Of a stretch of 64,000 nt of DNA, positions 6,334 to 60,581 are shown piece after piece. Under the pieces are notes generated by a model, which saw only the letters and a list, made by a program, of their open reading frames with translations, was not told the origin of the DNA and did not search any database. The translations under genes and the position numbers were made by a program. How positions within the stretch are numbered: the first letter of the stretch is position 1; every line of letters begins with the position of its first letter. The DNA comes from Eledone cirrhosa (Eukaryota): positions 230,516,001 through 230,580,000 of the forward strand of contig OZ024743.1 in the NCBI GenBank assembly GCA_964016885.1, in the 5' to 3' direction.

Positions 6334-6334
<1 letters not shown>

Positions 6335-6596
6335 GTTTCTTTATTGGCCACAAGGGCTAACACGAAGAAAACAATTTTAGACGGCAGAGAACAGTACAGG
6401 ACGATACAAATTGGGTTTTGGTCGTGTAAACAAGTTGTAACAAAATTGGGCTAGAAATCAAAAGAATTCAAACAACAACAATTCCCAATATGGAGGAAAC
6501 CTCCGAAGCTCACACGTTGCGAAAACTACACAAAAAGGCCACGGCCACGCTAACTACCAGGGCACGCGCCCTCTCTTACTTTTCCCACTCCTCAGT

Positions 6597-9500
6597 CTAC
6601 AGTCGCATACTCAGAGCGGGCCCGTTCACTCGTACTAGACTCGCCACTTTCACCCACCTTTCAACAAACATACTAGAAGACAACACTTGCCTTTCCACAC
6701 TGATTTTCCTCTTCAAATGAAACTTGAAAAAGTTAATCAGGGATTGGCCGAAGAGGAAAGTGTCCTTCTTCAACCCTTTCAACCTTGTCCACCACACAAT
6801 CTCTTTAGCCATGGCCACCAGGTAGATGAAAACTGCCTGCCCTTCCTCCTCTTTAACGGAGGATGGCGGGGCTATCTGCAGAATGGACTCAGTCGATAAC
6901 CGGATCCGTCCTACACGCGACAGCAGCTGTTCGACATAGCTCCACATGTCAGAAATCCTCGGGAACTGAACGAGTGCGTCCAAGACGGTTTCTTCGCCCT
7001 GCGCGCATCACGGACAGGCTCGGCTGACAGCACCTCTTTGCCTGTAGAGCTTATCCAGAACCGGCAACGCTCCCCGGTAGCACTGCCAGGCCAGGGATTT
7101 TTGGAAGTTATCCATAGGCCCTGGACTGAATGTTCTCCGGAAGAGAGCAAACAGCTGATCGTCTTCGACGCCCAGCGCCTCAACGAGCATGTCATCGCTC
7201 TTTCCCTCCACTAGCCCTCTATAGAATGCCAAGGTGGATGTTCCACCAATATTTGTGCCCAGCTGCTAGAGCCAGGTGAGCGCTTGGAGACATTCCAGCT
7301 CCCAAGCGCTATCTCTTGGTCTTTTCCTGATCCAGGACGGCATCTCCGTCAAGGAGACGAGCTGGGGAAAAGCGCGTTTGGCAAACGGTGACCACACCTG
7401 TTCACCGCCAAGGAAGCACCAGAGACGTCGCAGCCTCAGCGCATGTTTGTTCATCATCAGCCACAGCATGCCTAGTCCTCCACGCAACGGGTGTTGACAG
7501 CAAATGGATCGTCTGACCATGGGAGCACGTCTCTTTCTCAAAAAGCGGAAGAGAAGGCACTCCATTTTGGTCAGAGTTGGGCGTGGGCGGTAGTAGATGA
7601 CGGATGCTAAGTACGCATTCGCCACCTCCGCCCGACCTTTCAGAAACATCTTCCTCTCGGCCCATTTCTGGGTGAGAGAGGCCACCCTGTTTGTCACCTC
7701 GCTCCTGTTTTTCTTCATCTGGAGGTCCGGAGCGAACGAGACCCCGAGCAATTTAACCGGTCCTTCCCTCCAGTGCCCAACGAATGCAGTCGGAAGGCAT
7801 GGACTTTCCTCTCCAGGTGCCGAGTTGCAAGCCCACACACTTTTCCTCGTTTATCTTTTCTCCTGTCACCGCTTCGTATTTCTTGATTGCGGTGTCGAGC
7901 ATTTGGACGTGTTTGGTGCTCGACACGACCACCGTGACGTCGTCGGCTTAAGCTGACACGGATCTCCCGCATCCCAGTTCGCGTGGGACTCCCTCATCGT
8001 CTCCAATTTGTGTAGTAACGGCTCGTGTGCCAGTACGTACAAGAAAGACGAGCGGTGGCAACCCTGGCGGACCGAGGGCATGATACTGAGCGGCTGCGAC
8101 AGGTGACCATTCACCCTCACAATCGAGCAGATGTCGCTGTGCATCGCAGTGATCCAGCTACTAAAAGCGGGCCCGAAGCCGGCCGCCTCAAGGACCGCAA
8201 CCAGGTACCGATGGTCGACCCTATCAAATGCTTTAGATTGATCCAAGTTGATCAGGGCCCTACCCGTGCCAGGTTCCTTAACCACCCTCTCTATGATGTT
8301 TCGCATGAGATGGAGGTTGTCGTGGATTGATCTGTCCGGAATGGCGCATGTGTGCGATCTACCACCAGGTCACCGATGACAAGCACCAATCTCTTTGCTA
8401 ACACCTTGGCCAAAATCTTAAACTTTGCGTTTAGCAGAGTTAGGGGCCTGAAGTTGTCTATAACGCCCCCCTTGTTTGGGTCTTTTCTCAGCAGCGCCAC
8501 CGCTCCCCGGCTCACAAAACTGGGAATGATCCCCTTCTGCTGCCAGTTGCAGTAGACCTCTGCCAATAGGTCGCCGAACTAGTCTGGCATATGCGCATAA
8601 AGTTCATAAGGCAGACCATCCGAACCTGCGGATTTACCCCTCGTGAAATCAGACATCGCTTCCCGTATTTCACCTGCTGTCATCGGCTTTTTGCAGCACT
8701 GTGCTGCGGTTGTCGAGAGCCGCGGCAGTCCGTCGAGGTATGCACCGAAGTCCATACTCTGATCCGCCCCGCCGCCGCTCCCGAACAATTGAGCAAACTG
8801 CTGTTGAAGAAAAGCCACACACATCTGCTCGGTTTCGAGCAACATGCGCCCGTTTTCATCAGGCAAATACCGAATTGTTGACTTGTTGCCACGTCGACCC
8901 CCCACCACCCGAGCCCATTGGACGTATTTTGTCCCCTCGTGTTTCAGAGCACGCGCTCTAGCTCCGACAACGCAGCCTTCATGTTTTGCGTGGAAGAATT
9001 GGTCGAGTGCCAATCTCGCCGCAAGCATATCGGTTGTGATGTCTGTCCTAAACGCCTCTTCTAGCTTTCTAACTAACCCTCCCTCTACTCTATTTTCCTC
9101 TATCACTACTCCTTTGCTAAACCTTATCTACTCTAATATCCCTTCAAGGGTAAACCACCACCTGTTGTTGTCGATCGCAGCCGTCAACGCACGCTTAACT
9201 AATTCGCTAATCCTGTCTCTGTATGCTTTGCGTGCCGGGAACGACCCATTCAGCTTCCAGTAGCCGGACCCTTGCTTATGGAGTCTATCTAAGTCAACAT
9301 CACAGGTAACAAATTTGTGGTCCGTGTAGTCGACTACTTTAAATTGTGGACAACCTACACTAGCTTTATCTGTTTCCCTACAGAATACCCTATCTAAATA
9401 CGATCTGAATTACCCGATGCGGTTTGCTCATGTCCACGTTGGCACATTCGGATAATCCAGTCTATACCTGTCAGGCAGTTAAAAACGTCTCAGCAGGTTG

Positions 9501-9995
9501 TTGAGGCTTTTAATCCCTCCTGCCCTGTCTACTAGTCCCACATAATCCCAGCATCCATCTAAGATACCGTTCCAGTCGCCCCTAACACTAAATAGCGGGA
9601 CGTTCCAAGAAAGATCTCTAGACGTCTGAAGAAATATGCCCGTCCTGTCTCTGTTGGGGCGTAGACGGCTACTAGCCTGAAAGTTTTGCCTTCGCTGCCG
9701 GTCACATCCAGCACCCCCAACTTACCTTCTGGATCCAGGAAGATGGCTCGTATGGCGAGATCCAAGCCTCTCCGAAAAAGCACAGCAACTCCTCCCCCGA
9801 TCCTGGACGGCTGGGAGATGCGTATATATCGTAGCCGCCGAAAATCAGTGCGAAGGCTCGTGCTTCGGAGATTCTGGTCTCGCTGATGGCCACCACATCT
9901 ATGTTTAGTGACCTGTGGTCGTGGAGCAGATGACCGTGCTTCCAAGAAGATCCCAGGCTACATACATTTATACTGCCTATTCTAAGTACGGCTAT
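6597..9995 (-). pseudogene. ORF2 of copy 2 (AP endonuclease, reverse transcriptase, CCHC), frameshifted
   Basis: VAISETR, VAVYAP, KSAGSDGLPYE, FRPLTLLN, DQSKAFDRVDH, VRQGC, VKLLGV, LRGGLGM; start codon mutated to ATA at 9995. Confidence 0.92.
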
Positions 9996-10024
9996 GTTGG
10001 ATGAGAAATGGGGTAATAGAAAAG

Positions 10025-11941
10025 GATCACTTACCTTGATCGTGTGGGGAAGGGACAGTAGAACCGTCCCTTTAACAGGTCATGGGTGTTTCCGATAGGA
10101 TATCGGCGTATATCCTCTTGGTAACCGACCCTCTGAAGTCTCCAACTGCGTTGGGGAATTTTTCTTTTAAAAGTTTATGTTCTATTTTAATTTCAATGAT
10201 GCTTATCTTTTCCGGGACAGTTCTTGTGTTGGTGGGGTGTAGCAATTTTTTTTTTCTGTGATGTCTTTGTGCTGTTTTATATGTTGTAACAGTTCTTTAT
10301 TTGCCATGTTGATAGCTGTGTACTTTTTGGTGGGAGGGGTGGTTTTGTTGCTGTTTTCTTCTTGTTGCTGTTGGGTATATGTGCTTTGTTGTGTTTGCGA
10401 TGTTAGTGTTTTTGGTGATGCTGGTGTTGATGTGGTTGTTGTTGATAGTGATGCTTGTGGTGGTGATGGTGGTGGCGCTAGTGGTCGTGGTGGTGGTGGT
10501 GGTGGTGGTGTTGCTGCAGGTCTCCTTGCAGCCTTTACCACTCTTTGTTTGGCCTTTGCTTTTAGAGGGTGAAGCTTATCACTTCCCTCCCGCCTCAATC
10601 TCCATGTCGAATTCCGTGGCGTTTGGGAGGGGTATGAGCTGCACTGCTGTTGGTGGTGGTAATGGAGCCCGCTCCGGTGATTTTGCCGCCGTTGTAGTTA
10701 CTGCGACTGTTGGTGTTTCCGCCACTGCTGCCACTGTTTTAGTTGTCCGTGGCCTTGTTATGGATGCCACGGTCGTTGCCCTCCAACTCACCATGGAAGG
10801 GTCTTCTTTGGCTGACTTCTGTGGGCAGAAGGCCTTGAAGTGACCCTTTCTGCCCACAGAGATAGCACTTTGGGCGCGCTTATAGGGAGCTGGAGTCCTT
10901 TCTCGAGGTCTATGATATCTGGGATGGCCTCGATGCACTCATTTTCAGTTTGTATTAGCATTTGCATGCCTATTCCTGGTCAGTTCTCTCTTCCCATTCT
11001 CTGTATTAGCAGTATGGTGGTCTTCTTCTCGATTCCAGCATATACAGACGTGGCCAGCCAAGGTGTGGGCACCTCGAGCGGGACTTGGTCACTTTGACAC
11101 TCACAATTTTCTGCCCGCAGTAGGAGGGCACCAAGACTATCTCCTCACTCTTTAGGGTTTCCAAAGAGTGAGACTCCGCCTCTTACGGGGTGGCGAAAAG
11201 TACGTCTAATGTGGCGTACTTTTTGCCTCGGTGATGTGGGTTTTGCGCGCCCAGACGCACCCCAAGGCCTTTTGGATTTGAGCCTCCATGGCTCTCTCCA
11301 CCGGATGTGACATTTTGCTTTCGGTGCGGTAAGTCACCATGTGCAGCTGCTGGTCTTTGAAGAAATCAGGTGGAGGTTTCAGGGAAACTCTATTCTCATG
11401 GCTCTTGCGACTGCCATCTCCTCCGTGACTTTCACTATCTCTATATTTCGGGCCACACCTGCGAAAGAAGTGGCCCCTTTTTCAGCAGCGCTATTATTGC
11501 TGCCGCTACTGCTGCTACTGGTCTTATTGTTGATGCTGTTGCTGTTGCTACTGCTACAAACGGTGTTGTCGGTGTTGTTGCTGTTATCACTGTTGTAGTT
11601 GCTATTTTTTTTGGTGCCACCGTTGTTGCTGTTTTCGGTGCAATTTGTATTGTTGCTGTTGGTGTTGTCACTATTTATTTTCTTATTAATGGTGTTAATA
11701 TCGTTGTTGCATTTGTTGTCATTTTTTTATGTTGTCTGTATTTTTGTTGTCGCTGTTATTGTTGTAGTTGGCGTGGTAATTTTTTTTTAAAACTAGTGTT
11801 CTCAGTGTTGTTGTCTTTCTTGACGTTATTTGTGGTGGTGTTTGTTGTATCAATTTCTGTGTTCGCCGTAACCCTCCTCTCAACTTTTACGCCGTTGTCA
11901 CACGACAGCAGATATATTGCTGGGGGACGTGGCTCAGCCAT
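10025..11941 (-). pseudogene. ORF1 of copy 2 (Asn/Thr-rich N-terminus, RRM-like core, CCHC knuckle, Pro/Thr-rich tail)
   Basis: MAEPRPP start; core ..QIQKALGCVWARKTHIT..KKYATLDV..VLVPSYCGQKIV; HFKAFC; KEKFPNAVGDFR. Confidence 0.85.
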
Positions 11942-12155
11942 GTTTTTATTTTATTTTTAAAAGTAAAAGGTTCAAATATTTGGGCCAATAGGCCCAAATA
12001 TTTTACTTTCTCCTTCGCAGGGCGAAGTCCAAGGTCTTATATTCCTTACACAACAAGAACAATTTAACAACAAATAATTATAGCAGGTAAATAAAACGAC
12101 TTACTGGGAGCGAGCAAAAAGACGTCCAAACAGACCAATAATAATAATATTAATT

Positions 12156-12334
12156 GTTTTTTACTTTTGGCACAAGGCCAGCAAACACCCAGTGTATTAC
12201 TGGTACTTTATTTTATCGACCCCGTAACGATGAAAGACAAAGTTAACCTCGGCGGGATTTGAACTCAGAATGGCAAGGGCCGTAACTCTACGCGTCAAAG
12301 CATGGCGACCGACCCTCTAGCAATACTGCCATCC
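12156..12334 (-). mobile_element. tRNA-derived SINE with (ATT)n tail
   Basis: Reverse complement has A-box-like tggcagtattgctag, B box gagttcaaatcc, core ttgtctttcatcgttacggggtcgataaaataaagtaccag and tail ggccttgtgccaaaagtaaaaaacaatt. Confidence 0.88.
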
Positions 12335-13683: not shown

Positions 13684-15730
13684 ATGGCGTAGGCACGCGC
13701 CCCAACTTTGACTTCGCTGTCTTGCGACAGCGATTCAAACGTTGAGATTAATAACGCTCCTCCTCCCACAACAATTTTAAAATGTAACAACACATCAGGC
13801 AATATCTCCAACAACAGCACCAACAACAGTGAGAACAAAAATGACAACAGCAGCGACAGCGACATTACCAAAGACATTAAAAAAAAAACAGTCGTGAACA
13901 AGAACGACAACAGCACCAGCGACAACTTTTCACAACAAATCCAACAACAACTGCAATAATGACAACAACACCAACAACAGAAAGAACGACAACAAAGACA
14001 AGAATATCAACAACAGTGACAATCACAACAACAGCAACAATAACAATAGCAGCAGCAACAATATCAACGAAAACAACAACGAAATTAACACCACTAACTA
14101 GAACATGAACAGCGACAGCACCAACAACAACAATACCAACTGCACCGAAAACAACAATAACGGCGGCACTAAAGACAACAATGATAACAGCAACAGTGAT
14201 AATAGCAACAATACCAACAACAACAACGACAACAACAACAACACCAACGACAAGAAGAAGAACACTTTCGCTGCGGCAGCAGCCAAAAACAGGCCATGCT
14301 TCAGTACGGACCTCTCGAAGGAAGATGAAAAGTTGGCCCAGGCCTGGATGCTCATCAAACAAGGGCAAACCTTGGCCAACTTAACTGCCCCGGTAGAAGC
14401 TATTGAAGCAGTGGAGCGCAGAACGGTACATTACAGATGCATCTCAGCGGAAACTAAGAGGGCAGCTTTAATTCCACAAGCAGATGTCGAAGTCGCGCTG
14501 AGGTGCATCAGGGATGACACCGAATACATAACGAGGGGCAGACAATACGGTACCATTTCGGTGCTGTTTAAGTCAGAAGCACTCGCTATGAAACATGCTA
14601 TGACACCTTGCAAAACCAGCAAGGTCATAATGTACCCCTCCCTCATGGGAAAAAGATCGGCCCGTCTCCGCATTCCCAGAATCCCACCAGGACTTGACAT
14701 GTGGTGGCTTTTGGGATGTGTGGAGGGGACGGATACCATCCCGATAGAAGTAACAAGAACTGCCTAAGAGGATTGGTCCGGGGTTGACCTGGAGATACTT
14801 CTCCAGATCAGGCCAGAGAATATCAAAACAATCGCGGTCCACATCCGTCTTCAGAACGGGACGGTCATTCACATTATGACCGAAGGGAAAAGGCCGGATT
14901 GTTTCGTTTGTGGAGAAAAAACCCATTTGCGAGCCTTCTGCCCTCAACACATGAAAGATGCAAGGGGTTGAAGGGCTCCACTGCTGCCGACGAAAGGACG
15001 AGGACCACAACCAACACCAGCACCGGGAAAACCACCAGCAACAACACCAATAGAAAAACCAACACTAACATTAACCACCCATGGGGGGAAACGAGGAAAG
15101 TTGCCCCCCCCCCCCTCCTCCAACACACACATCAATAAAAATAAAATCACACACACAGACGCAGACACAGTTACAGACACAGACCCCTCATCTACCAGTA
15201 GTGAAGATGAGGGAAAACCAAAATCCCCTAAAATACAAAAAAGGAAACACAAAAAGAAAAAAAAACTCAACAAAGCACAAAAACACCCACAATAAAAAAT
15301 GCAGACACCACCCACGCAAACATCTCCCCAACAACACCAACATCAACACCACCATCACCATCACCATCACGAGAATCCCCCAAACGCAAACAACCTAAAC
15401 AGACGCAAGAACAAATACACACACAAACATCTGAAACCACAGACACCGCACTCACAACAAATACAGACAGCACCGAAACAACACCATCAAAACCATCACC
15501 ACCATAGCCACGCAAACAAATAAAAACCCACCAACAAAACATACAAAACTTCGTGCTCGTCAGGAGGGCCAACAAGGAACTGATGGCCCTCATAGCACGA
15601 AGTGAAGAAATACAAAAAGTGGGGGAAATATTTAAATCGAGCACATATCGTGTGCCGGAAGATTTGCTTCTGGTGCGAATGTCACTCGATTTATGCAAAG
15701 AGATACGAGACAGCTTTCCTCGGGATGTAA
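13684..15730 (+). pseudogene. ORF1 of copy 3
   Basis: Asn-rich N-terminus, TFAAAAA motif, core YITRGRQYGTISVLF..IPRIPP, CCHC knuckle, stops and frameshifts; 3' end approximate. Confidence 0.82.
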
Positions 15731-15763
15731 GTAAACCTTTCCTCTCACTTTTAGCCTGCCAAC

Positions 15764-18700
15764 ATGACCATATTAATAGCAGGATGTTGAAATGTTTGAG
15801 GCCTTGGAACGTCCTGGAAGCAGGGTCACCTGCTCAACCACCTCGGGTCCCTAGAAATGGATGTAATTGCCATTAGCAAGACCAGGATGTCCGACACGCT
15901 CCTAATTTCGACGACTATCAGATCTTCGCATCTGTTAGTCGGCAGGGAATGGGAGGTGGGGTGGCAGTGCTGTTTATGAAAAGCCCGGATCTCGAGGTAA
16001 GAATCCATCTTCCGGGACCCGGACGGTAATTTGGTGGTCCTGGACGTGAACAATAGCGAAGGTGGTGCCTTTAGACTGGTGGCCGACTAAGGCTCCCACC
16101 GGGGAAGGACGGCCGGATTTTTTAGACGCCTGGAAGCCTTTATGGGCACGTCTCGCCCTTTACTGTTAGAGGGGGACTGGAACGGCATCTTAGAAGCACG
16201 CTGGGACAGTGTGGGAGTATCCGATAAGAGTGCGGTGTGGGGTACACAAACCTCAAGTACCTGATCAGCCAGTCCCAACTGTCGGACAGGTACCGATTAG
16301 ATTTTCCTAATGCGCCAGTGTGGACCTGGACAAATCGTTTAGGAACATCTAGATCGTACATAGATAGGTTTCTAATTTGATTATTGGATAAGGATAGTAT
16401 AGGGTGTTCACAATTACATACGGTCGCTTATTCAGATCACTAGTTTGTTATATGTATGGTCAACCTAGATAAGACGCGTCGGTTAGGACCTGGTTACTGG
16501 AAGCTGAACATGTCGTTTCCGGCACGTAAGGCTTACAGTGACCGAGTCAACAATTTAGCCAAGAAAAATTTGACAGGTGGAGTTGTCAACAATAGATGGT
16601 GTGTGTGGGGAGGGGGCTCTCAAAGGAGAGACTAGAGTAATGTCGATAGGTTCTAGCAAAGAGTAGCATTAGAGAAAAATAGAAAGGAGTGGGAGCAGGT
16701 AGATAAGTTAGGCGAGGCTATTTGTAGTGGCATTGCAACTGACATGCTAGCGGCGAGAATGGCATTAGATCATTTCTTCAATGCGAAACACGGAGGTTGC
16801 ATTGTCAGAGCTAAGGCGCGTGCTCTGAGAAACGAGGAAACCAAAGCTATTCGAGGGGCCCGCGTGGCAGAGGCGCAGCATGGTAATAAAACCACAATTC
16901 GGTCTTTGACGGACCGAGACGGACACGAGCTGAACTATTCCAAGAGGATGTGTGAGGCCTTTCGCCAACATTTTACTCGGTTGTTCGGGAGAAGTGGCGG
17001 GTCAGAGACGGTTGCGGACTTTAATCGCTACCTCGAGGACTTGCCGCAACTCTTGACGTCAGAGGCTGAGTGCTGCGAAAGGCCGATTACTGCAGCCGAG
17101 TTTCAGGATGCCCTTGTTGGTTGCATGAGGCGCAAGTCACCCGGTTTGGATGGTCTGACCTACGAGCTTTACGTAAATATGCCAGACTTGTTCTCCGATC
17201 TCCTCCAAGCGCTCTACTGCAAATGGCAGCATAATGGGAGTATTCCCAGTCCTGTGAGAAGGGGAGTGGTGACGCTCATAAGGAAAGAGGTGAACAAGAG
17301 AGACACACTAGTCAATTTTAGGCCCATACATCTGCTCAACTCATAGTTTAAGATTTTGGCCAAGGTGTCAGCGAAGAGATTAGCGCTTATCGTCGAGGAT
17401 TTGTTTGGGGAGGCGCAAACTTTCGCGATCCCGACCAGGTCCATACAACCTCCACCTGATGCGATACATGATAGAGAGGGTGAGGTGTAAACCTGGCTTC
17501 GGTGGGGTTCTGATCAATTCAGATCAATCGAAAGCATTCGATAGGGTCGACTATCGGTACCTGGAAGCTGTCCTCAAGGTAGCTGGCTTCGGCCACCGTC
17601 TTCAGAAGTTGGATCGCTGCAATGCACAGGGGCATCTGATCGATGGTCATAGTTAAATGCCACCTCTCGGAACCGTTTCAGATCTCCCGATAGGTCCGTT
17701 ATGGGTGCCCTCTCTCCTCCCTTCTGTAGGTATTGACTCTCGAGCCTTTACTGCAGAAGTTGGCGCTGTTGCAGGGCATCCCACTTGAACCAGGACGGGG
17801 AAAGGCTGTGTCGGCTTATGCGGACGACATCACCGTGATGGTGTCGGACACTTCGGAAATCTAGGTGTCGGCAACTTATTGGAGGAATATGAAAGGTTGA
17901 TAGGAGCACAACTTTACCTGGAAAAGTCGGTGGGCTTACAACTTGGCACCTGGACGGACGGACCGGTAAAGTTGCTTGGAGTTTGGTTCGGGCCTGAACT
18001 CCAGGTGGATAAATATTGAAATGAGGTGATGGCCAGCGGAGCCAGTCTCACCCAGAAATGGGCTGTGAGGAAGCTATCACCGAAAAGTCGGGGGGAGGTG
18101 GCGAACGCGTACATCGAGTTCGTCATCTACTACCGCCTCACCGACGTCACTTGCTCCCGTTAACGCCTCGCCAACTTGGAACGGTTCCTCTTCAAATTCT
18201 TGTGGAGGGGACAGGTTCTGTTGGTGAGGCGGTCCATCTTCTGCCAGCACCCTCTACGTGGAGGGATGGGCATGCCGTGGCTACTGATGTGCAAACGCGC
18301 TGAGGCTGCAGCATCTCCAGATATTCTGCCTAAACGGTGAACAGGTGTGGTCGTGGTTTGTCAGACGGGCCATTTCGCAGCTCGTCTCTTTGGCTGAACT
18401 GCAGTCCTGAGTCAAGAAGAGACCGAGACTGGGTGACTAACATCTGAAATGTTGCCAGGCACTCAGTGCCCTCTACCAGGCGAGAAATGCGGTCAGTGGA
18501 ACTTCCACTCTCGAGTTCTATAGAGGCTCTGGGCGTCGACGAAGTCGAACTAAACAGTCTGTTCCCGAGGACTTTCGAGGCGGGAACGATGGATCACTCG
18601 CTTGGCAGTGCTACCGGAGGGGACTGCCGGTTCGAGATAAACTCTACAGGCATGGAAGTGCTGTCAGACATACCTGCCCGAGATGCGCGCTGAGCGACGA

Positions 18701-19093
18701 AACCGTTCTGCACGCACTCATCCAGTCTCCATGTATTACTGACATGTGGAGTTATGTCGAACAGCTGTTGTCGCGTGTAGAACGGATCAGGCAATCGGCC
18801 GAGTACATAGTGAAGATCGACCCACCGCCTTCTTTTGGCCAGGAAGGGCAGGCAATTTTCCTCTGTCTGGTGGCAGTAGCGAAAGAGGTTGTATAGTGGA
18901 CCAGGTTGAAAGGACTAAAGACAGATGTTTTTCTCTTCGGCCAATCCCTCATCAACCTTTTCAAGTTTCACTTGGAAAGGTATGTGAGGGAGGCGAGAAA
19001 AATACTGCCCCCCCTAGTACATTTACTGAAAGGTGAGTGAATGCGGCGAGAATGGCCCGTGTGAGTGGTTCTACTCTGATCATGCGCCTGCAG
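15764..19093 (+). pseudogene. ORF2 of copy 3 (APE-RT), disrupted
   Basis: caacATGaccatattaatagcagg start matches the other copies; ORF 16744-17346 and downstream RT motifs; many stops. Confidence 0.9.
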
Positions 19094-19352
19094 GTGGGGG
19101 AATTTGAGGTGGAGAGGAGTGCCCTTCCCGGGTGCTCTCGAAGCGTCGGATCGTTCAGGATTGGTAGGTACCTGAGTGAACCCTGAGTGGTCATCCCGCC
19201 CTATTGAGGAATTTTCCTTGTATTTTTATTGTTATTTTGTTATTGTTATTTATATTGTTTACACGTTGTATATGTAACCCCCATTGTCCCTGTCTTTTTG
19301 TATTGTCCCCTATATGTCGGCCCTTGTGGTCAATAAATGAAACTATAATTAT

Positions 19353-19381
19353 ATGTAAACCCTTGTTGTTAATAAAGAAAG

Positions 19382-19382
<1 letters not shown>
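19353..19382 (+). mobile_element. 30-bp 3'-terminal stub of the copy 4/5/6 Tx1 lineage
   Basis: atgtaaacccttgttgttaataaagaaagc matches the copy 4 end atgtaaacccttgtggttaataaagaaagc (25475-25504) with one mismatch. Confidence 0.8.
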
Positions 19383-19456
<74 letters not shown>

Positions 19457-19460
19457 TATT
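19383..19460. repeat. (ATT)n array
   Basis: Direct observation. Confidence 0.99.
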
Positions 19461-19660
19461 AGGGCGGGGATTGGCAGTATCGGTAGAGGGTCGGACGCCA
19501 AGCTTTCCAGCATAGTTACGTCCCTTTACGATCTGAGTTCAAATCCCGCCGAGGTTGACTTTGCCTTTCATCCTTACGGGGTCGATAAAATAAAGTACCA
19601 GTAATGCACTGGGTAATTGCTGGCCTTGTGCCTAAAGTAGAAACAATTATTATTATTATT
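19461..19660 (+). mobile_element. Full-length tRNA-derived SINE with (ATT)n tail
   Basis: tggcagtatcggtag (A box), gagttcaaatcc (B box), central gttgactttgcctttcatccttacggggtcgataaaataaagtaccag resembling Meta/Sauria-type SINE cores, tail ggccttgtgcctaaagtagaaaca(att)5. Confidence 0.9.
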
Positions 19661-19871
19661 ATGGAATGCCATGGTTGATGGAGCCTCGGCTTTGTAAGGT
19701 ACAGTAATTTTTAACCGCTATAACAATTGTAAATTCTTTAAAACTTGAACCAAATTATAGATAAAAACACCCTCCTCCTTGTGAGAGGGGTGATTCTGCT
19801 CTTTATTTGGCCCTTCGGGGTTAAATAACCGCTTATTGGTGCACAATATTCGTTTTAAACCGTATAAAAAC

Positions 19872-22027
19872 ATGGCTACAAAAAATAATTTTAACAAGTT
19901 ACTCCCACTCATTCCGGCTTCTTCTTCTTCAATCGTCACTACATCAGTACATCAGAGAAAAGATTGTCTCTCTCCCTCCATTCTCTAAATGTGGTGTCGC
20001 CTATTTCTCAAGCGACGCCATTAAAGAAAGAGAACAATATAGTTTCTGGTAGCTTTCACCAAGAGAATGTGCATACCGTGGAACATTTCTCCACGACGAC
20101 GACAACGACGAAAAATGTGTGCGATAAATACGGAAAGCCATTTCATTCGTCTGACGTCATGAATAATAGCAGCAGCAGCCGCAATAACAGCAGCAGCAGC
20201 AACAGTGGCAAGGAAAATACTAGTACAGGCCGCAACAACATCAGCAGCAGCATAAACAACAGCAGCAGCAGCAGCAACAGCAACAACAACAGCAGCAGCA
20301 GCAACAACAACAACCACAGCAACAGCGGCGGCGGCGGTCGTAGTATCAGTAGCAACAACAAAAGTAACAGCAGCAAAGAACAACAACAACAACAAAGAAA
20401 AAACAACCTCGGTTGCAGGTATCGCCAAGAACCTGGAAACCATCCTTATAACAAATTAGGAATTACAGGAAGCAAGGAACATGGTGACGAAAACCGGTCA
20501 CCGAGCAATCTGCAAGGCAGCCGAAGAATTTTTCGAAACCCAACAGCAATGTACGGTTACGTACCGTACAGTAATCACAAAATCACGTAGGGTTGAAAGA
20601 GCCAAGGAGGCTCAAATACAAAAAGCCTTAGTGTCTGTGTGGCAGCGGAAAACGCATATCACCCGAGGCAAGAAATATGCCAGCGTGGACGTGCTTTTTG
20701 CCACACCCCAGGAGCCAAAGGCTCAATCCTTAGTGACCCTAAGGAGTGAGGAAATGGTATTGGTGCCCTTTTACTGCGGGCATAAAATTGTGAGGGTCAT
20801 ACTGACCCAGATCGTCGAGCCCTTGGATGGCCCCTTCTTGGCTGGCAGCGTCTCTCCTCGTCAGAATCGAGGACAAAACAACTGTACTGCAAGTACAGAA
20901 AAAAGTACAAGAAGATTGAGTCGGCACCTCCATTGAGATGTTAATTCAAAACAAACAGGAGTGCATCGAAGCTATCCCGGATGTGATAGACTTCGATAAC
21001 GGCACTCAACTGCCCATAAGTGTTGAGGGCAAACGCCCGTAATGCCTTCGCTGTGGGTCAAAAACTCACCCCAGGGTCTTCTGCAATGAGAAGACGCTGA
21101 GAAATGAGTAAAAGCCTCCTCCTTACGAAACCGGCTCCACTGCTACCAGCAACAGGACAGGCGGAAACCAGGAAGGATAGGTCCGTGGCACCCATACCCA
21201 CGCCACGGAAACCAAGAACAGCAGCAACAGTGGAAGTATGAACAACAACAACAGTAATACCAACTGCAGCTGCAACAGAGACTCCACTGCAACCATCACC
21301 AACAAGAACAAGTGAAAGAGTATAGCTGGTACCCCTCCCCGACCTCACAGAATCGGACATGCAGTTGTAGGTGGGAGAGGGATGGCAAAAGGTCGCAAGA
21401 AGTCACAAACGCAGAAGCAACGCATCGTCGACTGCGAAAGGGGAGGGAAGAAATGGAAAAAGGGTAAAGGCTACTGCAAAGAGACTTACAGCAGCAACAC
21501 CACCAACACCATCACCAACCACACTAGCACCACCATCACCACCGGCGGAAAACCCACCACCACCAACAACAACACCTTCCACACCACCACCACAAGCACC
21601 AACATCGCAAACACAACAACAAAACACATACACCCAGCAAAAACGACAAGAAAATAGCAGAACCCCAGCCACCCCCAGAAAAAGAAATGCACAGCAATAA
21701 ATACACACAAGAAACTAATGACTTACATAATTGAACACACAGATATTTCACAGCACGACTACATAATACCAGCACCAATCAGACCACCAACGAACATAAG
21801 ACTGCTAAGAATAGCACAGAAACAATACACAAAACATTAAAATGAAATTCCCCAACGCAGTTGGTGATTTCAGAGACCTAGGAGGGACACTCAACCGGAG
21901 AGTATATTCGGATATACGCACAGAAGAGGCGACGACCAGCCGAAGGGACGATTCAACGGTCCCTTCACCAGACGATCAAGTGAAAAGTGATGGAGAAACC
22001 ATCCTTCCTCTACGAGAAGTAAGGTAA
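19872..22027 (+). pseudogene. ORF1 of copy 4
   Basis: aaaacATGgct start; Ser/Asn-rich region; VTYRTV..QIQKAL..HITRGKKYASVDV; degenerate knuckle; ends ETILPLREVR*. Confidence 0.85.
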
Positions 22028-22061
22028 ATGGTCTTTCCCATCTTTTTCACTCCATTTCAGC

Positions 22062-25000
22062 ATCACCTCACTCAGAATAGGCAGCATAAATGCGCGTGGC
22101 TTGGGGTCGTCATGGAAGTAGGGCCACCTGCTCAACGACCTCAGGTCACTAAATATAGATGTAGTGGCCATCAGCGAGACCAGAATCTCCGAAGCACGGG
22201 CCTTCGCACCGATCTTCGGCGGCTATGATGTCTACGCAACTACCAGCCGTCCTGGATCGGGGGAGGAGTTGCTGTGCTTTTTCGGAGAGGTTTGCATCTC
22301 GCTATACGGGCCATCTTCCTGGACCCAGGAGGTAAGTTGGTGGTGCTGCACGTGACCAGCGGAGACGGGCAAGCTTTCAAGCTAGTGGCCGTCTATGCCC
22401 CGACAGGAGCAGGGTGGCCTGATATCTTCCGGCGTCTGGAGACATTTCTTGTAATGTCGCGCTCTTTAGTGTTAGTGGGCGACTGGAACGGGATCTTAGA
22501 TGCACGCTGGGACTGTGTGGGATTAGTGGATAGGGGAGGAGGGTGCAAGAGCCTCAGCAACCGGCTCGGACGTTTTGAACTGTCTGACAGGTACCGATTG
22601 GATTTCCCGAATGTGCCAATGTGGACTTGGACAAATCGCGTTGTGTCATCCAGATCATATCTAGATAGAGTATTTTGTAGGGAAATTTATATGTCTTGCA
22701 TAGGCTGTCCACAATTCAAGATAGTCAGCTACACGGACCACACATTTGTGATCTGTGTGCTTGACTTAGATAGGCTTCATAGACGAGGACCCGGCTACTG
22801 GAAGCTAAACGCGTCCTTACCAGCGCGCAAGGCCTACAGAGACCGGATTACCGAACTAATATTTCAATGCAAAGCACGAAGGCTGCGTGGTCAGAGCTAG
22901 GGTGCGTGATCTCAAACACGAGGTGACGAAAGCCGTTCAATGGGCACGAGTGCGGTGACGCGTCGTGGCATCAAAGCAACGATTCGGTCTTTGGTGTACC
23001 ACGACGGGCACATGCTACTCGTTCCCGGGCAAATGTGTGAAGCTTTTCAGCGACACTTCGCACAGCTGTTCGGGGGAAGCGGCGGGCCGGATCGAGGGAT
23101 GGACTTTAGTGTCTACCTCGACGGAACTGCCGCAGTGCTGGAACACTGAGGCGGAGTGTTTCGAAAATCCGATAACACCGCTGAAGTACGGGAGGAAATG
23201 ACTGGCTGCACAAGGGGTAAATCGCCTAGCTTGGATGGTCTGCGCTACGAACTTTACGGACAGATGCTAAACTTGTTCGGGGGCCTCTTGGCGGACGTCT
23301 ACTGCAACTGGCAACATAATGGGAGGATTTCCAGCTCTGTGAGCCGAGGAGCGGTGCGCTGCTGAGAAAGGATCCGAACAAGAGGGATAACATAAATAAA
23401 TTCAGGCCCATAACTCTGCTAAACACAGAGTTCAAGATTTTGGACAAGGTGCTAGCAAAGAGGTTGGCGCTTGTCGTAGGGGGTCTGGTGGGAGAGACGC
23501 AGACATGCGCCATTCTCGACAGATCCATCCACGACAACCTCCACCTCATGCGGTACATCGTAGAGAGGGTAGCTAGGGAACCTGGCATGGGTGGGTCCTT
23601 GATCAATTTAGATCAGTCGAACATCGTTACCTAGCGGCAGTCCTGGAGGCGGTTGGCTTTAGACCCGTCTTCAGAGGCTGGATCGCTGCCATGCACAGTG
23701 ACATCTGCTCTGTGGTGAGAGTGAACTGTCACCTTTCGGAACCGTTCAATATCATGCGCTCGTTCCGCCAAGGATGTCCCCTCTCCTCCCTCTTGTAAGT
23801 ATTTACTCTCGAGCCATTACTGCACAAACTGGAGACGTTGAGGAGGTCCCGCGCGGACTAGGATGCAGAAGATCCGTGTCAGCATATGCGGACGACGTCA
23901 CCGTAGTGGTGCCGAATGCCAAACACATCGAGGCCTTCGGCACTACACTAAGAGAATACGAAGCGGTGACAGGAGCAATGATCAACCAGGAAAAGTCAGT
24001 GGGCCTGCAGCTCGGCACCTGGAGAGGCAGGTCCATGCCGTCCAACAGCGTCGTCGAGCGCTGGACGGACGGACCGGTTAAATTGCAGTTTAATTTCAGT
24101 CTTTGTCCGTCTGGAGGTCTGGACCGAACCGTCTGGTTCGGTCCGGACGTACAGACGTACAAAAACTGGGACTAGGTGACGAGATAGTTGCTTCTCTCAC
24201 CCAGAAATGGGCGGAGTGGAAGCTATCCCTGAAAGGTCATCTGCTAGGGCCTGAACGTCATACCTTGTCTTAATCCCCACCTGACTGCGCTGGAGCGTAT
24301 GCTCTTTCGCTTTTTGTGGAAGGCGGTGGTCAGGCGGTCCATCTGCTGTCAATACTCGCTACGTGGAGGGCTGGGCATGTCGTGGCTGATGATGTGCAGA
24401 AACGCGCTTAGGCTACGACATCTCCACATCGTCCTCGACGGTGATCAGGTGTGGTCGCCGTTTGCTAGACGCGTATTTCCCCAGCTCGTCTCCTTGACGG
24501 AGCTGCAGTCCTGGGTCAAGCGAAGACCGAGAGGGAGCGCTTGGAGACTGGAATATCTTCAGGCGCTCACAGCCCGCAACCCATCGGGCAATGTGATCAG
24601 TGGAAACTCCACCTCTGCGTTCTATAGAGGATTAGTGGAGGGGATGAGCGACGACGTACTTGGGGAAACTCTAGGCGTCGACGAAAATCAACAAGCCAAT
24701 CTCTTCGGAAGAACTTTCGGGCCGGGGCCTATGGACAACTTCCTCAAATCCCTGGCCTGGCAGTGCTACCGAGGAGCTTTGCCAGGTCGGGATAATCTCT
24801 ACAGGCATGGAGGTGCCGTTAGCCGGGCATGTCCGAGATTCCGCGCAGGGCGACGAAACCGTCCTGCACGCACTCGTCCAATGTCCGAGTATTGCTGCCT
24901 TGTGTGTTTATGTCGAACACCTGCTGTCGCGTGTAGGACGGATCCGGATATCAGCTGAGTCCATCGTGAGAATTGCCCCGCCCTCTTAGCTTAGCCGGGA

Positions 25001-25251
25001 AGGGCAGGCAGTTTTTATCTGTCTTGAGGCCATGGCGAAAGAGATAGTATGTTGGACAGGTTTGAAAGGGCTGAAGACGAGCACTAACCTCTTCGGTCGG
25101 TGATGCCCTGATTAACTTTTACAAATTTCATTTGAAACGGAAAATCAGGGTAGAGAGGGAAGTGCTCTCTTCCCAGCATTTTGTTGAAAGATGGGTGAGA
25201 AAAGCAAGAATGGCCCGAGTGAATGGGCCTACTCTGAGTATGTGTCTGTAA
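22062..25251 (+). pseudogene. ORF2 of copy 4 (APE-RT-CCHC), frameshifted
   Basis: LRIGSINARGL, VAVYAP, LVGDWN, SYLDRV, YTDH, SAYADDVT, CP...ETVLHALVQC; start mutated to ATC. Confidence 0.92.
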
Positions 25252-25533
25252 ATTAAAGGTGGAAAACTGGGAGAGGGCACTTGCCCTGGTGGTCAGGGTC
25301 AGTGTGGCCTTTTAATGGGCTTTCTCCACAAATGTCCCTCGGAAGTCTCCCCCCTATTGGGGAATTTTGTCATCGTTCTATTATTACATCCTCTGTTTTT
25401 TGTTTTTTTTTACACGCAGAAATGTCCATTTGTACCGTCTTGTATTGTCCTGTACTGTCCTTAATGTCTACTTTATGTAAACCCTTGTGGTTAATAAAGA
25501 AAGCATTATTATTATTATTATTAATATTATTAT

Positions 25534-26000
25534 AGTTGCATTTATCTTGCTTTATGTTCATACGAGTTATCACCAAGTGACAACCAGTGACCTCAAGAGA
25601 CAACAAGGTCCGCCATGTTCAAGAAAGAACATACATATTCACACATGCATCTTTAGTGTTTAGACTTGTGATGTACTTATATTGACAGAATCTTCCTTAG
25701 TATATGGGCAGTTCCCATTAGTACTATCTTTTGTATTTCTCCTATACGCGGGTTTCCTGGGATTTGCGATAAGTAATCATTAGACCCCTTAGGTATCATT
25801 CCCAGAGCGCCTAAAACCACTGGTATTGTTTTAGTTCTCAATTTCCACATTTTTCCAATTTCTATCTCCAGGTCCTTATAGTTGCTCAATTTTTCAAATG
25901 TTTTTATAGATACATTCTTGTCTATTGGAACAGACATATCAATTAGCAGGCATACCCTCTTTTGAAAGTCTTTCAATATTATATCAGGTCTGTTTGCATC
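25534..26000 (-). mobile_element. 5'-truncated R4/Dong-like non-LTR element (REL endonuclease C-terminus and 3'UTR)
   Basis: NRPDIIL..CLLIDMSVP..EKLSNYKDL..IPVVLGALG..QKIVLMGTAHILRK*; flanked on both sides by (TAA)n on its sense strand. Confidence 0.88.
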
Positions 26001-26070
<70 letters not shown>

Positions 26071-31305: not shown

Positions 31306-31782
31306 GGCAATCTTGATGAAGTCAAAGAAAAACGTAAAGAATGAGAGGAAAATGACAAAGAAGACGTTGGGAGTGGTGGTTTCAAATTATTGAACAAAGA
31401 AGATGAAAAGAGAATTCTCATCCAAGTGATAGCGTTCTTCTTTCGATTGATTAATTTCTATGAGTTAGATGGGCTCTAACAAGTCATCACGTGATACAAT
31501 GACTCATAGATGCTTCACAGTCTGTAAATGTTTAAATATGTAAACCTGTTGGTGAACGTTGACGACAGCAGGTAGGAGAAGCAAACAGCAGCAGCGGCAA
31601 CAACAGAAGGAAACAATATTTTGTTCCCGTTTAGAACCCTTTTTATAGTATCTCAGCCCCTAACTGGCTTTGATTCTATGAAACAAATCCATAATTTATA
31701 ATGTGTACCTCATTATATGATAATCTTCTGACATCATTTTCTATGGCGTGTATGTTAAGTTACTAACTTAATTATTGAATAA

Positions 31783-31968
31783 TTAATAATTGTTTCTACT
31801 TTAGGCATAAGGCCAGCAATACCCAGTACATTACTGGTACTTTATTTTATCGACCCCGTAAGGATGAAAGGCAAAGTTAACCTCGGCGGGATTTGAACTC
31901 AGACTGTAAAGGGACGTAACTATGCTAGAAAGCATGGCGTCCAACCCTCTACCGATACTGCCAATTCA
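31783..31968 (-). mobile_element. tRNA-derived SINE, full length
   Basis: Reverse complement closely matches 19461-19660. Confidence 0.9.
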
Positions 31969-32097
31969 CTATTGCTAGTAAATTCTTCAAATTTTTCCTT
32001 TAATTAATTGGAATAGAGTGTATTTCATTAAAATTACTCTCACAAAATTATCAACAAGTCGAAGCAGAGTGAACAGACTCCAATGTGTAAGTCAGCA

Positions 32098-32237
32098 TCA
32101 TAGTTACGTCCCTTTGCGGTCTGAGTTCAAATCCCGCCGAGGTTAACTTGCCTTTCATCCTTACGGGGTCGATAAAATAAAGTACCAGTATTGTACTGGG
32201 TAATTGATGGCCTTGTGCCTAAAGTAGAAACAATTAT
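32098..32237 (+). mobile_element. tRNA-derived SINE, 5'-truncated
   Basis: catagttacgtccc..gagttcaaatcccgccgagg..ggccttgtgcctaaagtagaaacaattat. Confidence 0.9.
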
Positions 32238-42320: not shown

Positions 42321-42364
<44 letters not shown>

Positions 42365-42365
42365 G
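42222..42365. repeat. (TTC)n followed by (AAT)n
   Basis: Direct observation. Confidence 0.98.
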
Positions 42366-42840
42366 GCCAGAGGCGGTGATGGAGAACAATCAGGTGAAGG
42401 TGCTGTGGGATTTTAGGATACAGACGGACAAAAAACTGGAACACAATAGACCTGACCTGGTGGATGTGGACAAAGAAAAAAGATCGTGCCTGATTGTGGA
42501 TGTGGCCTGCCCGTTCGACACGAGAGTGCAAGAGAAGGAGAGGGAGAAAATTAACCGATACCAGGACCTAAAGTGGGAGGTGAAAAGGATTTGGAACTGC
42601 CATGAAGTCAAAGTGATCCCGATTGTCATAGGCGCACTGGGGACTATCTCCAAAAGTTTCCAGGGATGGTTAAAGAAAATCGGCCCCTTCACGCTTTTTG
42701 GAACGCTTCAAAAGGCATGCTTGCTTGGAACAGCAAGAACCCTCCGATACGTCCTGAATATCTGAGGCTGCAGGTAGTGGCTTGATATTCAATCCAACGG
42801 ACTTTCCAGTTAACCAACATCAATGACTGAGATTCAAGGA
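42366..42840 (+). mobile_element. 5'-truncated R4/Dong-like element (REL endonuclease and 3'UTR)
   Basis: Open frame 42376-42765 ENNQVKVLWDFRIQTD..HNRPDLV..IVDVACPFD..EKINRYQDL..PIVIGALG..LQKACLLGTARTLR; (TAA)n on both sides. Confidence 0.92.
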
Positions 42841-43105
42841 ATAATAATAATAATAATAATAATAATATAAATGATTTATTTATTAACCACAAGGGTTTAC
42901 GTAAAGTAGACATTAAGGACAGTGTAGGACAATACAGGACGGTACAAACGGGCATTTCTGCGTGTAAAGAACAAAAACAGAGGATGTAACAAAAAAATAA
43001 CAATGAAAAATTCCCCAATAGGGGGGAGACTTCGGAGGGACATTTGTGGAGGAAGCGATCCTGACCCCCAAGGCAAGTGCCCTCTCCCAGTTTTCCACCT
43101 TTAAT

Positions 43106-46100
43106 TTAGAGATAAGTACTCAGAGTAGGCCCATTCACTCGGGGCATGCTTGCTTCTCTCACCCATCTTTCAACAAAATGCTGGGAAGAGAGCACATCCC
43201 TCTCTACTCAGGGCATCACCGAAGAGGTAAGTGCTCGTCTTCAGCCCTTTCAAACGTGTCCACCATACTATCTCTTTCGCCATGCCCACCAGACAGATAA
43301 AAACTGCCTGCCCTTCCCGGCTAAAGGAATAAGGCGGGGCAATCCTCACGATGGACTCAGATGATAGCCGGATCCGTCCTACACGCGACAGCAGGTGTTC
43401 GACATAAACCCACAAGTCAGCAATTTTCGGACACTGGACGAGTGCGTGCAGGACGGTTTCGTCGCCCTGCGCGCATCTCGGACATGCCCGGCTGACGGCA
43501 CCTCCATGCCTGTAGAGTTTATCCCGAACTGGCAAGGCTCCTCGGTAGCACTGCCAGGCCAGAGATTTCTGCGGTCCCGGCCCGAAAGTTCTTCCGAAGA
43601 GATTGGCTAGTTGATTTTCGTCGACGCCTAGAGTTTCCCCAAGTACGTCGTCGCTCTTCCCCTCCACTAATCCTCTATAGAACGCCGAGGTAGAGTTTCC
43701 ACCGATCACATTGCCCGATTGGTCGAGGGCTGTGAGCGCCTGAAGACATTCCAGTCTCCAGGCGCTCCCTCTCGGTCTTCGCTTGACCCAGGACTGCAGC
43801 TTCGTCAAGGAAACGAGCTGGGGAAATACGTGTCTAGCAAACGCCAACCACACCTGATCACCGTCGAGGAAGAGGTGGAAATGTCGTAGCCTGAGCGCGT
43901 GTCTGCGCATCATCAGCCACGGCATTCCCAGCCCTCCACGTAGCGGGTGTTGACAGCAGATAGACCTCCTGACCATCGGAGCGCGTCCCTTCCACAAAAA
44001 GCGAAAGAGCAAACGCTCCAGCGCAGTCAGGCGGGGCTTAGGACAAGGTACGACGGTCAGGCGGTAGCAGATGACAGACGCAATGTACGCGTTAACCACC
44101 TCTGCTCGACTTTTTAGGGATAGCTTCCACTCCGCCCATTTCTGGGTGAGAGAAGCCACTCTGCTCGTCACCTCGTCCCAGTTTTTGTCCGTCTGGAGGT
44201 CCGGACCGACCAGACCCCTAGCAATTTAACCGGTCCGTCCGTCCAGCGTCCGACGATGCTGTTGGACGGCATGGACCTGCCTCTCCAGGTGCCGAACTGC
44301 AGGCTCACTGACTTTTCCTGGTTGACCATTGCTCCTGTCACCGCTCCGTATTCGCTTAATGAAGTGCCGTTCGCCTCGATGTGTTTGGCGTTCGACACCA
44401 CTACGGTGGCATCGTCCGCATATGCTGACACGCATCTTTCGCATCCTAGTTCGCGCGGGACGCCCCCCAGCGTCTCCAGTTTGTGCAGTAATGGCTCGAG
44501 AGTCAATACGTACAAGAGGGACGAGAAGGAACATCCTTGGCGGACCGAGCGCATGATGTTGAACGGTTCAGACAGGTGACCGTTCACTCTCACCACAGAG
44601 CAGATGTCGCTGTGCATGGAGGCAATCCAGCCTCTGAAGACGGGCCCAAAGCCAGCCGCCCTCAGGTCTGCCGCTAGGTAACGATGGTCGACCCTATCGA
44701 AAGCTTTCGACTGATCTAAATTGATCAAGGACCCACCCGTCGCAGGTTCCCTAGCTACCCTCTCTACGATGTATCGCATGAGGTGGAGGTTGTCGTGGAG
44801 GGATCTGTCGGGAATGGCGCATGTCTGCGCCTCTCCCACCAGACCACCAACGACAAGCGCCAACATCTCTGCTAGCACCTTGGCCAAAATCTTGAACTCT
44901 GTGTTTAGCAGCGTTATGGGGCGGAAATTATCTATGTTATCCCCCTTGTTCGGATCCTTTCTCAGCAGTGCCACCGCTCCTCGGCTCACAGAACTGGGAA
45001 TTCTCCCGTTCTGTTGCCAGTTGCAGTAGACGTCCGCCAAGAGGCCTCCGAACAAGTCTGGCATCTGTACGTAAAGTTCATAGGGCATACCATCCAAACC
45101 AGGCGATTTACCCCTTGTGCAGCCAGTCATTGCCTCTCTTACTTCAGCGGCTGTTATCAGCTTTTCGCAACACTTCGCCTCAGTGGCCGAGAGCCGCGGC
45201 AGTCCGTCGATGTAGACACTAATGTCCATCCCTCGACCCGGCCCACCGCTGCCCCCGAACAGCTGAGCGAAGTGTCGCTGAAAAGATTCACACATTTGCC
45301 CAGGATCGAGTAGCATGCGCCCGTCGTGGTCCACCAAAGACCGGATCGTGGCTTTGTGCCACGACGCGCCTCCCCCACTCGGGCCCATTGAACGGCTTTC
45401 GTCCCCTCGTGTCTGAGAGCACGCACCCTTGCTCTGACAACGCAGCCTTCGTGCTTTGCATTGAAGAATTGGTCAAGGGCCAATTTCGCCGCAAGCACGT
45501 CGGTCGAAATGCCTTTGCTAAGCGCCTCGTCTAATTTTCTAACTAGTTCTCCCTCTGCTCTATTTTTCTCTATTGCTAAAGCCTTACTAAACCTAATCGA
45601 TTCTATTCTAATCGCTCTTTTCAGAGCAAACCACCACTTGTTGTTGACGATGCCCCCCAACAACGCCCGCTTAACTAGTTCGCTAATCCGGTCCCTGTAG
45701 GCCTTGCGCGCTGGTAAGGACGCGTTTAGCTTCCAGTAGCCGGGTCCTCGTCTATGAAGCCTATCTAAGTCAAGCACACAGATCACAAATTTGTGGTCCG
45801 TGTAGCTGACTATCTTGAATTGTGGACAGCCTATGCTAGACCTAGCTATTTCCCTACAAAATACTCTATCTAGATATGATCTGGATGACCCTATGCGATT
45901 TGTCCAAGACCACATTGGCACATTCGGGAAATCCAATCGGTACCTGTCAGACATTTCAAAATGCTTGAGCAGGTTGGTGAAGCTTTTACACGCTCCACCC
46001 CTATCCTCTAATCCCACACGGTCCCAGCGTGCATCTAAGATCCCGTTCCAGTCGCCCACTAACACTAAAGAGCGGGACGTTCCAAGAAAGGTCTCCAGAC

Positions 46101-46473
46101 GCCGGAAGAAATCAGGCCGCCCTGCTCCTGTCGGGGCATAGACGGCCACTAGCCTGAAAGCTTGCCCGTCTACGCTGGTCACCTCCAGCACCACCAACTT
46201 ACCCTCTGGGTCCAGGAAGATGGCCCGTATGGCGAGATCCAAACCTCTCCGAAAAAGAACAGCAACTCCTCACCCCGATCCAGGATGGCTGTGAGATGCG
46301 TACACATCCTAGCCGCCGAAGATCGGTGCGAAGGCCCGTGCTTCGGAGATTCTGGTCTCGCTGATGGCCACTACATCTATGTTTAGTGATCTGAGGTCGT
46401 TGAGCAGGTGACCCTGCTTCCATGACGACCCCAAGCCACGCGCATTTATGCTGCCTATTCTGAATGAGGTCAT
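43106..46473 (-). pseudogene. ORF2 of copy 5 (APE-RT-CCHC), few frameshifts
   Basis: ATG at 46473; LVGDWN, SYLDRV, YTDH, KSPGLDG, FRPITLLN, DQSKAFDRVDH, VRQGC, SAYADD, CPRC..ETVLHALVQC. Confidence 0.95.
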
Positions 46474-46508
46474 GTTTAAAATAGAGTGGATAAGATGGGA
46501 AAGACCAC

Positions 46509-60185: not shown

Positions 60186-60581
60186 CAAATCAAAATTTAA
60201 AAAAACAGTCCACCTTAATACCTGCAATCACTTTCATGTCTTCGAAATGCACATAACATGATTATATAATATATATAATATATATCATAATCTATAAAGC
60301 TCAGTGTGTGGTCATGCTCCTTCGTTATAGAAATCTACGATATAGAATTCATTCAATTTAAATTTACAATTCAGCATTCGAAATAGCTTCGATTGCGTTT
60401 TGACGCAGATAATGTTTTCAATTTCACCCACAATTACGCAAAAAATAGATAAAACTGAATATTTTACGATTTTTCTCTCTCATTTAAACTGCTGAACCCT
60501 TTCTACTACCATTCAAAATCTATACAACTTCATATTTTCTGCTACTTTCTCTTTCCAAGCTTGATGGTGATACTGTCCGTT

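Follow-up and report, generated by a model that had tools for sequence, protein, structure and literature searches.

A short SINE of Eledone cirrhosa ends in a tail whose match to the 3′ ends of Tx1-type LINEs is, by sequence comparison, real and beyond chance. Because the two elements have a 26-nt terminal signal in common and the SINE inserts at ATTAT with target duplications of mostly 7–19 bp, its copying in trans is probably the work of ORF2 from the Tx1 group that targets ATT repeats, and SINE and Tx1 likely form a stringent-type pair. A sequence-only reading of the same DNA had proposed mobilization by Tx1 ORF2 through a common 3′ signal; as an inference, this proposal is supported by the target duplications, by the overlap in age, and by the intact young Tx1 copies described below.

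The DNA analyzed is a 64,000-nt stretch of contig OZ024743.1 (hereafter, the window), the features of which are listed in Table 1. The SINE had been described as flanked by ATT arrays and oriented like its Tx1 neighbors, and this is what we find, with (ATT)26 upstream, (ATT)5 downstream, and all neighbors on the plus strand. For comparison with the rest of the genome, we used a sample of 79 stretches of 10 kb taken at fixed steps, mostly from large contigs (790 kb of 2,996 Mb, 0.026%).

Table 1 Repeats and sequence motifs in the 64,000-nt window
Feature	Position	Strand	Remarks
Tx1 copy 2	6334-12136	-	GCC-CTTGT-GGC hairpin within last 26 nt (6334-6359)
Second SINE	12138-12331	-	directly 5′ of Tx1 copy 2, equal polarity
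Tx1 copy 3	14206-19344	+	decayed; 78-84% identity to young Tx1 family; 5′ end reaches about 13600
5′-truncated Tx1 tail	19353-19382	+	30 nt, subfamily A type; immediately before (ATT)26 array
(ATT)26 array	19383-19461	+	5′ flank of SINE
SINE, short subtype	19462-19645	+	184 nt; tRNA-like head, central domain, Tx1-like tail
SINE A-box-like motif	19472-19483	+	by eye against consensus
SINE B-box-like motif	19535-19547	+	by eye against consensus
SINE shared terminal motif	19622-19632	+	GGC arm 19622-19624, CTTGT loop 19625-19629, GCC arm 19630-19632
SINE spacer	19633-19645	+	GAAACA at its end; aligned with Tx1 AATAAA-GAAAnC, hexamer lost
(ATT)5	19646-19660	+	target or target duplication; doubles as 5′ flank of Tx1 copy 4
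Tx1 copy 4	19661-25504	+	full length, decayed; last 26 nt 25479-25504
Tx1 copy 4 terminal AACC-CTTGT-GGTT	25480-25492	+	
Tx1 copy 4 AATAAA	25493-25498	+	
Dong/R4-type LINE	25520-26007	-	5′-truncated; tail-to-tail with Tx1 copy 4, one common array; label taken from sequence motifs
SINE outside ATT arrays	31778-31965	-	
SINE outside ATT arrays	32096-32237	+	5′-truncated
Dong/R4-type LINE	42364-42867	+	
Tx1 copy 5	42868-48834	-	endonuclease, RT, and zf-RVT frames
93-bp tandem repeat	60581-60895		3.4 copies

SINE and LINE families

The SINE is likely of the tRNA-derived type, with a tRNA-like head recognized by eye from its A- and B-box-like motifs; ARAGORN and Rfam returned no tRNA or Rfam match for it. 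Octopus tRNA-derived SINEs (OR1, OR2, and OK) were reportedly described by Ohshima and Okada in 1994, and the head and central domain of the present SINE presumably resemble them. The available text of PMC4824008 and PMC4758252 names no partner LINE for these octopus SINEs. In the 790-kb sample, the central domain was matched 123 times, by 65 short-type copies, 18 long-type copies (with ~28 nt extra before the tail), and 40 copies with a different tail or none, and extrapolation from the 65 gives ~250,000 short-type copies genome-wide. Forty scored genome copies, spread over many contigs, are 98–100% identical to the window SINE, and divergence from the majority sequence is 0–20% (median 4.4%, 58 copies). 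Target duplications and many 5′-truncated copies are marks of retroposition. A third SINE type (loci L106, L110, L115, L123, and L138) has the same central domain and an unrelated longer tail, which by sequence comparison is a tail swap.

Members of the Tx1 clade insert sequence-specifically and encode an ORF1 with a CCHC zinc knuckle. The LINEs that we take as Tx1 on these features fit the clade in domains, knuckle, and microsatellite specificity: copies carry the Pfam domains PF03372 (endonuclease), PF00078 (RT), and PF13966 (zf-RVT), the best PDB matches include LINE-1 ORF2 (E about 1e-29 to 1e-30), and the ORF1 frame shows, by eye, a CX2CX4HX4C knuckle with no Pfam match. The homologues returned included no named Tx1 reference. 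A young (ATT)n-specific family (loci L398-L417) is 5.8 kb long and often forms head-to-tail trains, and copy 3 of the window is an older relative of it. In a young subfamily, 30 loci show 99–100% identity across 1.5 kb, and at least five ATT units follow every one of them. Among the young copies fetched, 19 of 20 are full length and 16 of 20 have an ORF2 of 1150 aa; this frame recurs in 122 of the best 139 protein matches by manual count, i.e., about 120 intact frames. Pairwise identity in young Tx1 is 97.6–99.4%, and older copies of the ATT group are mostly 88–96% alike. When age profiles are compared, SINE and Tx1 activities overlap in time.

Several structural variants accompany these families. 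A second Tx1 group (loci L068, L085-L087, L108, L113, L124, and L126) has ~55–68% ORF2 identity, keeps the terminal hairpin, and mostly ends in (ATCT)n; one of its loci (L087) has an open frame of 1153 aa. Some Tx1 copies with near-identical ORF2 halves carry different 5′ halves (L240, L244, L398, and window positions 21979-22860), which suggests swapping of ORF1/5′UTR between Tx1 subfamilies. Two unlinked Tx1 copies (oriented L244:332-1906 and L246:231-1859) have in common a 1.6-kb 5′ extension, 96% identical, that combines a Tx1 fragment in inverted orientation with two SINEs arranged head-to-head and may represent either a 5′-extended master or a duplication. Two Dong/R4-type families lie in the same ATT/AAT arrays in opposite polarity, tail-to-tail with Tx1 or the SINE (Table 1; loci L070, L077, and L089).

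The common 3′ end and its predicted hairpin

The SINE tail was compared with the 3′ ends of the LINE families that the 790-kb sample and an RT search yielded, namely Tx1 (ATT and ATCT groups) and nine others (CR1-type, three; RTE-type, four; Dong/R4-type, two), labeled by sequence motifs. Aligned without gaps, SINE and Tx1 ends have a common architecture, with CTTGT between short complementary arms, a 16–17 nt spacer ending in GAAAnn, and ATTAT; the CTTGT lies 16 nt ahead of the first ATT in the window SINE and in Tx1 copies 2 and 4. The likeness of these three ends, first noticed by the sequence-only reading, is real and best in the gapless form: the tail of the window SINE (19620-19645) is identical to copy 2 at 17 of 26 positions and to copy 4 at 15 of 26. 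No better match came from another clade, the nine other LINE families sampled having just 2–9 identities of 26. Over all comparisons, SINE–Tx1 identity is only 15–18 of 26, and the ATCT-targeting Tx1 group matches the SINE equally well. The differences fall mainly at AATAAA, which is present in 34 of 36 Tx1 ends and in none of 68 SINE tails.

Chance had earlier been left open as the cause of a match of ~25 nt, and it is now rejected. We built a matrix from 68 SINE tails of the 790-kb sample (56 short-type, 12 long-type), with 1,575,892 reversed-genome positions as background. Under this matrix all eight Tx1 ends scored p <6e-7 to 3.2e-4, whereas all nine non-Tx1 LINE ends, although taken at the best of seven offsets, scored p ≥0.04.

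The Tx1 arms covary while the loop stays constant (of 122 ends, 78 have A-T and 40 have G-C at pair 3), and the SINE arm corresponds in sequence to the Tx1 arm minus one C-G pair. In 11 distinct Tx1 and SINE ends, 86% of cells pair and three of four pairs change on both sides, a value that is not a probability as these ends were hand-picked and are related; sliding the partners abolishes the covariation signal. The fourth pair is unpaired in 97 of 193 SINE tails. The hairpin comprises just 3–4 pairs, and none of the folds outperforms shuffled sequences (z −1.8 to +0.6). Predicted pairing of the three inner pairs is 0.67–0.99 in three Tx1 ends at 184 nt and 0 in one folding window of 120 nt. 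Of 59 loci found for distant relatives in metagenomes, the 20 inspected at the 3′ end (mostly 25–33% identity) all lack the loop motif at the terminus, and several of them finish with AATAAA and poly(A). The hairpin is therefore not general to L1/Tx1 elements.

In full-length SINE RNA the hairpin is predicted at ≤5% for all three subtypes, and the window SINE favors another helix. This and the weak z-scores would suit a relaxed form of recognition in which Tx1 ORF2 moves the SINE only through pairing of AUUAU with the nicked target, the hairpin being an inherited relic; the crocodilian SINEU elements, ascribed to Tx1-Mar with no common 3′ terminus found for SINEU-1 in the available text of PMC4494074, provide a precedent. 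We nevertheless consider such recognition unlikely, given that both SINE subtypes preserve arms, loop, and GAAA despite a variable spacer (in copies picked on the motif, and to that extent biased) and that the start point lies a constant 16 nt from the loop in 56 of 65 short-type copies. It would also predict other RNAs as cargo, but a scan of 1.95 Mb for duplications starting with ATTA recovered 49 SINE inserts and one Tx1 insert, with no recurring cargo seen among its 54 other matches.

Insertion sites and candidate partners

Junctions were compared after removal of 30 of 62 Tx1 rows (27 internal or inverted, three duplicates or tandem), two of 70 SINE rows (tail-only matches), and CR1 rows that had no 5′ junction, had <90% identity, or were duplicated or inverted; the Tx1 and CR1 sets were picked by similarity search and are not random. 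ATTAT follows the SINE end at 93–99% per base (67 copies). It is also present in the 5′ flank of 43 of 68 SINEs, compared to 25 of 32 Tx1 copies, four of 21 copies of a CR1-type family (CR1a), and a background of 4.4%; the ATT enrichment of SINE flanks, on which the pairing had been said to depend, was thus found. Duplications of at least 9 bp accompany 31 of 68 SINEs (permuted mean 1.4) and none of 21 CR1a copies. Those of Tx1 within arrays are indistinguishable from chance (17 vs. a permuted mean of 14.3), so the Tx1 comparison is carried by only four copies outside arrays, in which a duplication starts at the first ATT (L027, 9 bp; L258, 8 bp; L257, 9 bp; L040, 13 bp). By itself, the length of a duplication is no marker of clade, as RTE-driven SINEs also give ~17 bp according to the part of PMC7245038 consulted.

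The (ATT)n run had been counted as part of the common end. It is present, but it is mostly target DNA, because in 34 of the 50 copies with a duplication of at least 7 bp (70 examined) the first ATT is where the SINE duplication begins. Since (ATT)n likewise closes a CR1-type LINE of this genome, the repeat by itself does not identify the partner, and as proof of the SINE–Tx1 pairing it was rejected.

The suggestion that the SINE inherits the target preference of Tx1 holds in part. Both elements use ATTAT in the same polarity, but the SINE takes any such site (seven of 68 copies lie in arrays of at least three ATT, close to the 11.8% share of ATTAT sites located within arrays), whereas young Tx1 elements take arrays only (19 of 19 full-length copies, with arrays on both sides). 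In the mixed-age junction set, 17 of 32 Tx1 copies are array-bound (Fisher p = 8e-6 vs. the SINE). SINE and Tx1 often lie directly behind each other's tails. At L034/L035, a Tx1 end has its final 96 nt repeated four times in head-to-tail order, with every unit joined at the first ATT, an arrangement that resembles repeated priming at a fixed start point.

The mismatch between an array-bound Tx1 and a dispersed SINE could point to a rarer driver outside the sample, most probably itself of Tx1/L1 type, with the exact SINE tail and dispersed ATTAT insertion. Since the sample covers so small a part of the genome, a family with fewer than ~4,000 ends could escape it, and the genome search scores the best candidates only. 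Several searches nevertheless make such a LINE improbable. Among 83 ends in the 790-kb sample with the loop plus ATT, 64 have the SINE core and seven are Tx1 ends, and the remaining 12 have the look of SINE tails that were truncated or have decayed, or of isolated unrelated matches. A Tx1-type end was found in 26 of 30 zf-RVT loci, with none within range in the other four, and a distant L1-type protein drew only matches of 40–41%, nearly all with the young 1150-aa frame. A pattern combining a Tx1-type upstream word with the SINE hairpin gave 128 matches, of which the 30 inspected were all SINE tails (22 with a detectable core). A genome-wide pattern for SINEs with a longer Tx1-derived tail gave a single match, which proved to be an ordinary Tx1 end with a SINE behind it. 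Another pattern, for the SINE tail behind non-SINE sequence, matched eight times, each time a variant or truncated SINE; spanning only ~3% of possible upstream hexamers, it carries almost no information and was not counted.

All 30 loci from a PF00078 search belonged to one CR1-type family, CR1a, which is young (mostly 95–100% identity among copies), is abundant, has a 945-aa frame (L140-L169, L209-L238), and ends in its own hairpin and (ATT)n. In molluscs, SINEs usually have CR1 or L2 as partner according to the part of PMC4824008 consulted, but CR1a as partner, with a Tx1 likeness by chance or convergence, is largely refuted and keeps hardly any probability: its end agrees with the SINE tail at two of 26 positions (best p = 0.1), its hairpin differs, and because it makes no target duplications and has ATTAT at so few 5′ junctions (Fisher p = 4e-4 vs. 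the SINE) it is excluded despite its (ATT)n end.

Proposed mechanism and known systems

In the model that we favor, copying of the SINE by Tx1 ORF2, a template switch would have placed a Tx1 3′ end on an ancestral SINE, with the loss of one stem pair. ORF2 would recognize the CUUGU loop and the GAAA spacer of the Pol III transcript; the endonuclease would nick the bottom strand at ATTAT, the primer would pair with AUUAU(U) of the RNA, and synthesis would start right after GAAACA. The SINE may have dropped AATAAA because Pol III RNA needs no polyadenylation signal. Tx1 RNA, in turn, would read into its array and be cleaved downstream of AATAAA, giving a long (AUU)n that favors arrays, whereas SINE RNA with only 5–6 such bases would accept any ATTAT, which would allow genome-wide spread.

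In the parts of the literature consulted, L2 LINEs provide a precedent for loop recognition (PMC4176376; the "TX1" of that paper is a construct name). Like the stringent pairs described there and in PMC3747384 (UnaSINE1/UnaL2 and ZfL2; CR1, L2, RTE, I, and Tad1), the SINE combines a tRNA-like head with a short LINE-like tail, a fixed loop, variable arms, and a terminal repeat. It differs from the stringent pairs of PMC3747384 in that its partner would be a target-specific member of the L1 superfamily (Tx1 type), and its hairpin is much shorter than in known pairs and predicted to be weak in the SINE. The portion of Ohshima 2013 consulted (PMC3747384) lists 58 SINE/LINE pairs, with three L1-tail SINEs, all plant or algal, against >800 L1-clade LINEs; the 58-pair table includes no Tx1, animal L1, or cephalopod pair. 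Among these, ZmSINE2/3 with LINE1-1_ZM and SINEX-3_CR with L1-1_CR likewise have an L1-superfamily terminal hairpin copied into the SINE, but they are neither animal nor microsatellite-specific.

The closest parallel in the part of Kojima 2015 consulted (PMC4494074) is crocodilian SINEU/Tx1-Mar, in which a SINE is tied to a target-specific Tx1 by target and age and its preference is weaker than that of the LINE (13–23% for SINEU-1/2). In SINEU elements the head is of snRNA type and the tail is poly(A), and a LINE with the SINEU-1 3′ end was not found there, whereas the present SINE has a tRNA-like head, a Tx1-like tail, and no poly(A). With Kibi (TC)n, Koshi (TTC)n, and the crocodilian (TTCC)n/(TTTC)n Tx1 elements of the same paper, the LINEs described here have in common an APE-RT-zinc-finger ORF2 and fixed-polarity microsatellite insertion, but their target is (ATT)n, or (ATCT)n in the sister group. 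The consulted text of PMC4494074 held no report of a SINE partner for any of those microsatellite-specific Tx1 elements.

We found no SINE with a Tx1-derived tail in the portions of the literature consulted, which also covered PMC8967140, PMC10294476, PMC3531059, and PMC5786205 (the last with no occurrence of Tx1); Repbase or the 1994 octopus SINE paper may already record the pair. SINEs and L1-Tx1 elements have both been recently active in O. vulgaris, according to the part of PMC13282606 consulted. Within this literature, no earlier description of such a pairing was found for Tx1 elements. Tentatively, and with somewhat less than even confidence, we suggest that a Tx1-derived tail is here seen on a SINE for the first time, that the pair is the first L1-superfamily system of an animal to use stringent hairpin recognition, that AUU tail length sets the target range, and that an array-confined LINE has thereby unleashed a quarter-million-copy SINE across the genome.

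The pair bears on the open question of whether L1-superfamily elements outside mammals recognize a structured tail or a simple repeat only. The ~120 intact ORF2 frames of Tx1 and the arm variants that occur naturally make tail recognition directly testable in an animal. The pair would name the likely engine of the large SINE load in this genome, and it would show a route by which a LINE confined to specific sites can power the spread of a dispersed parasite.
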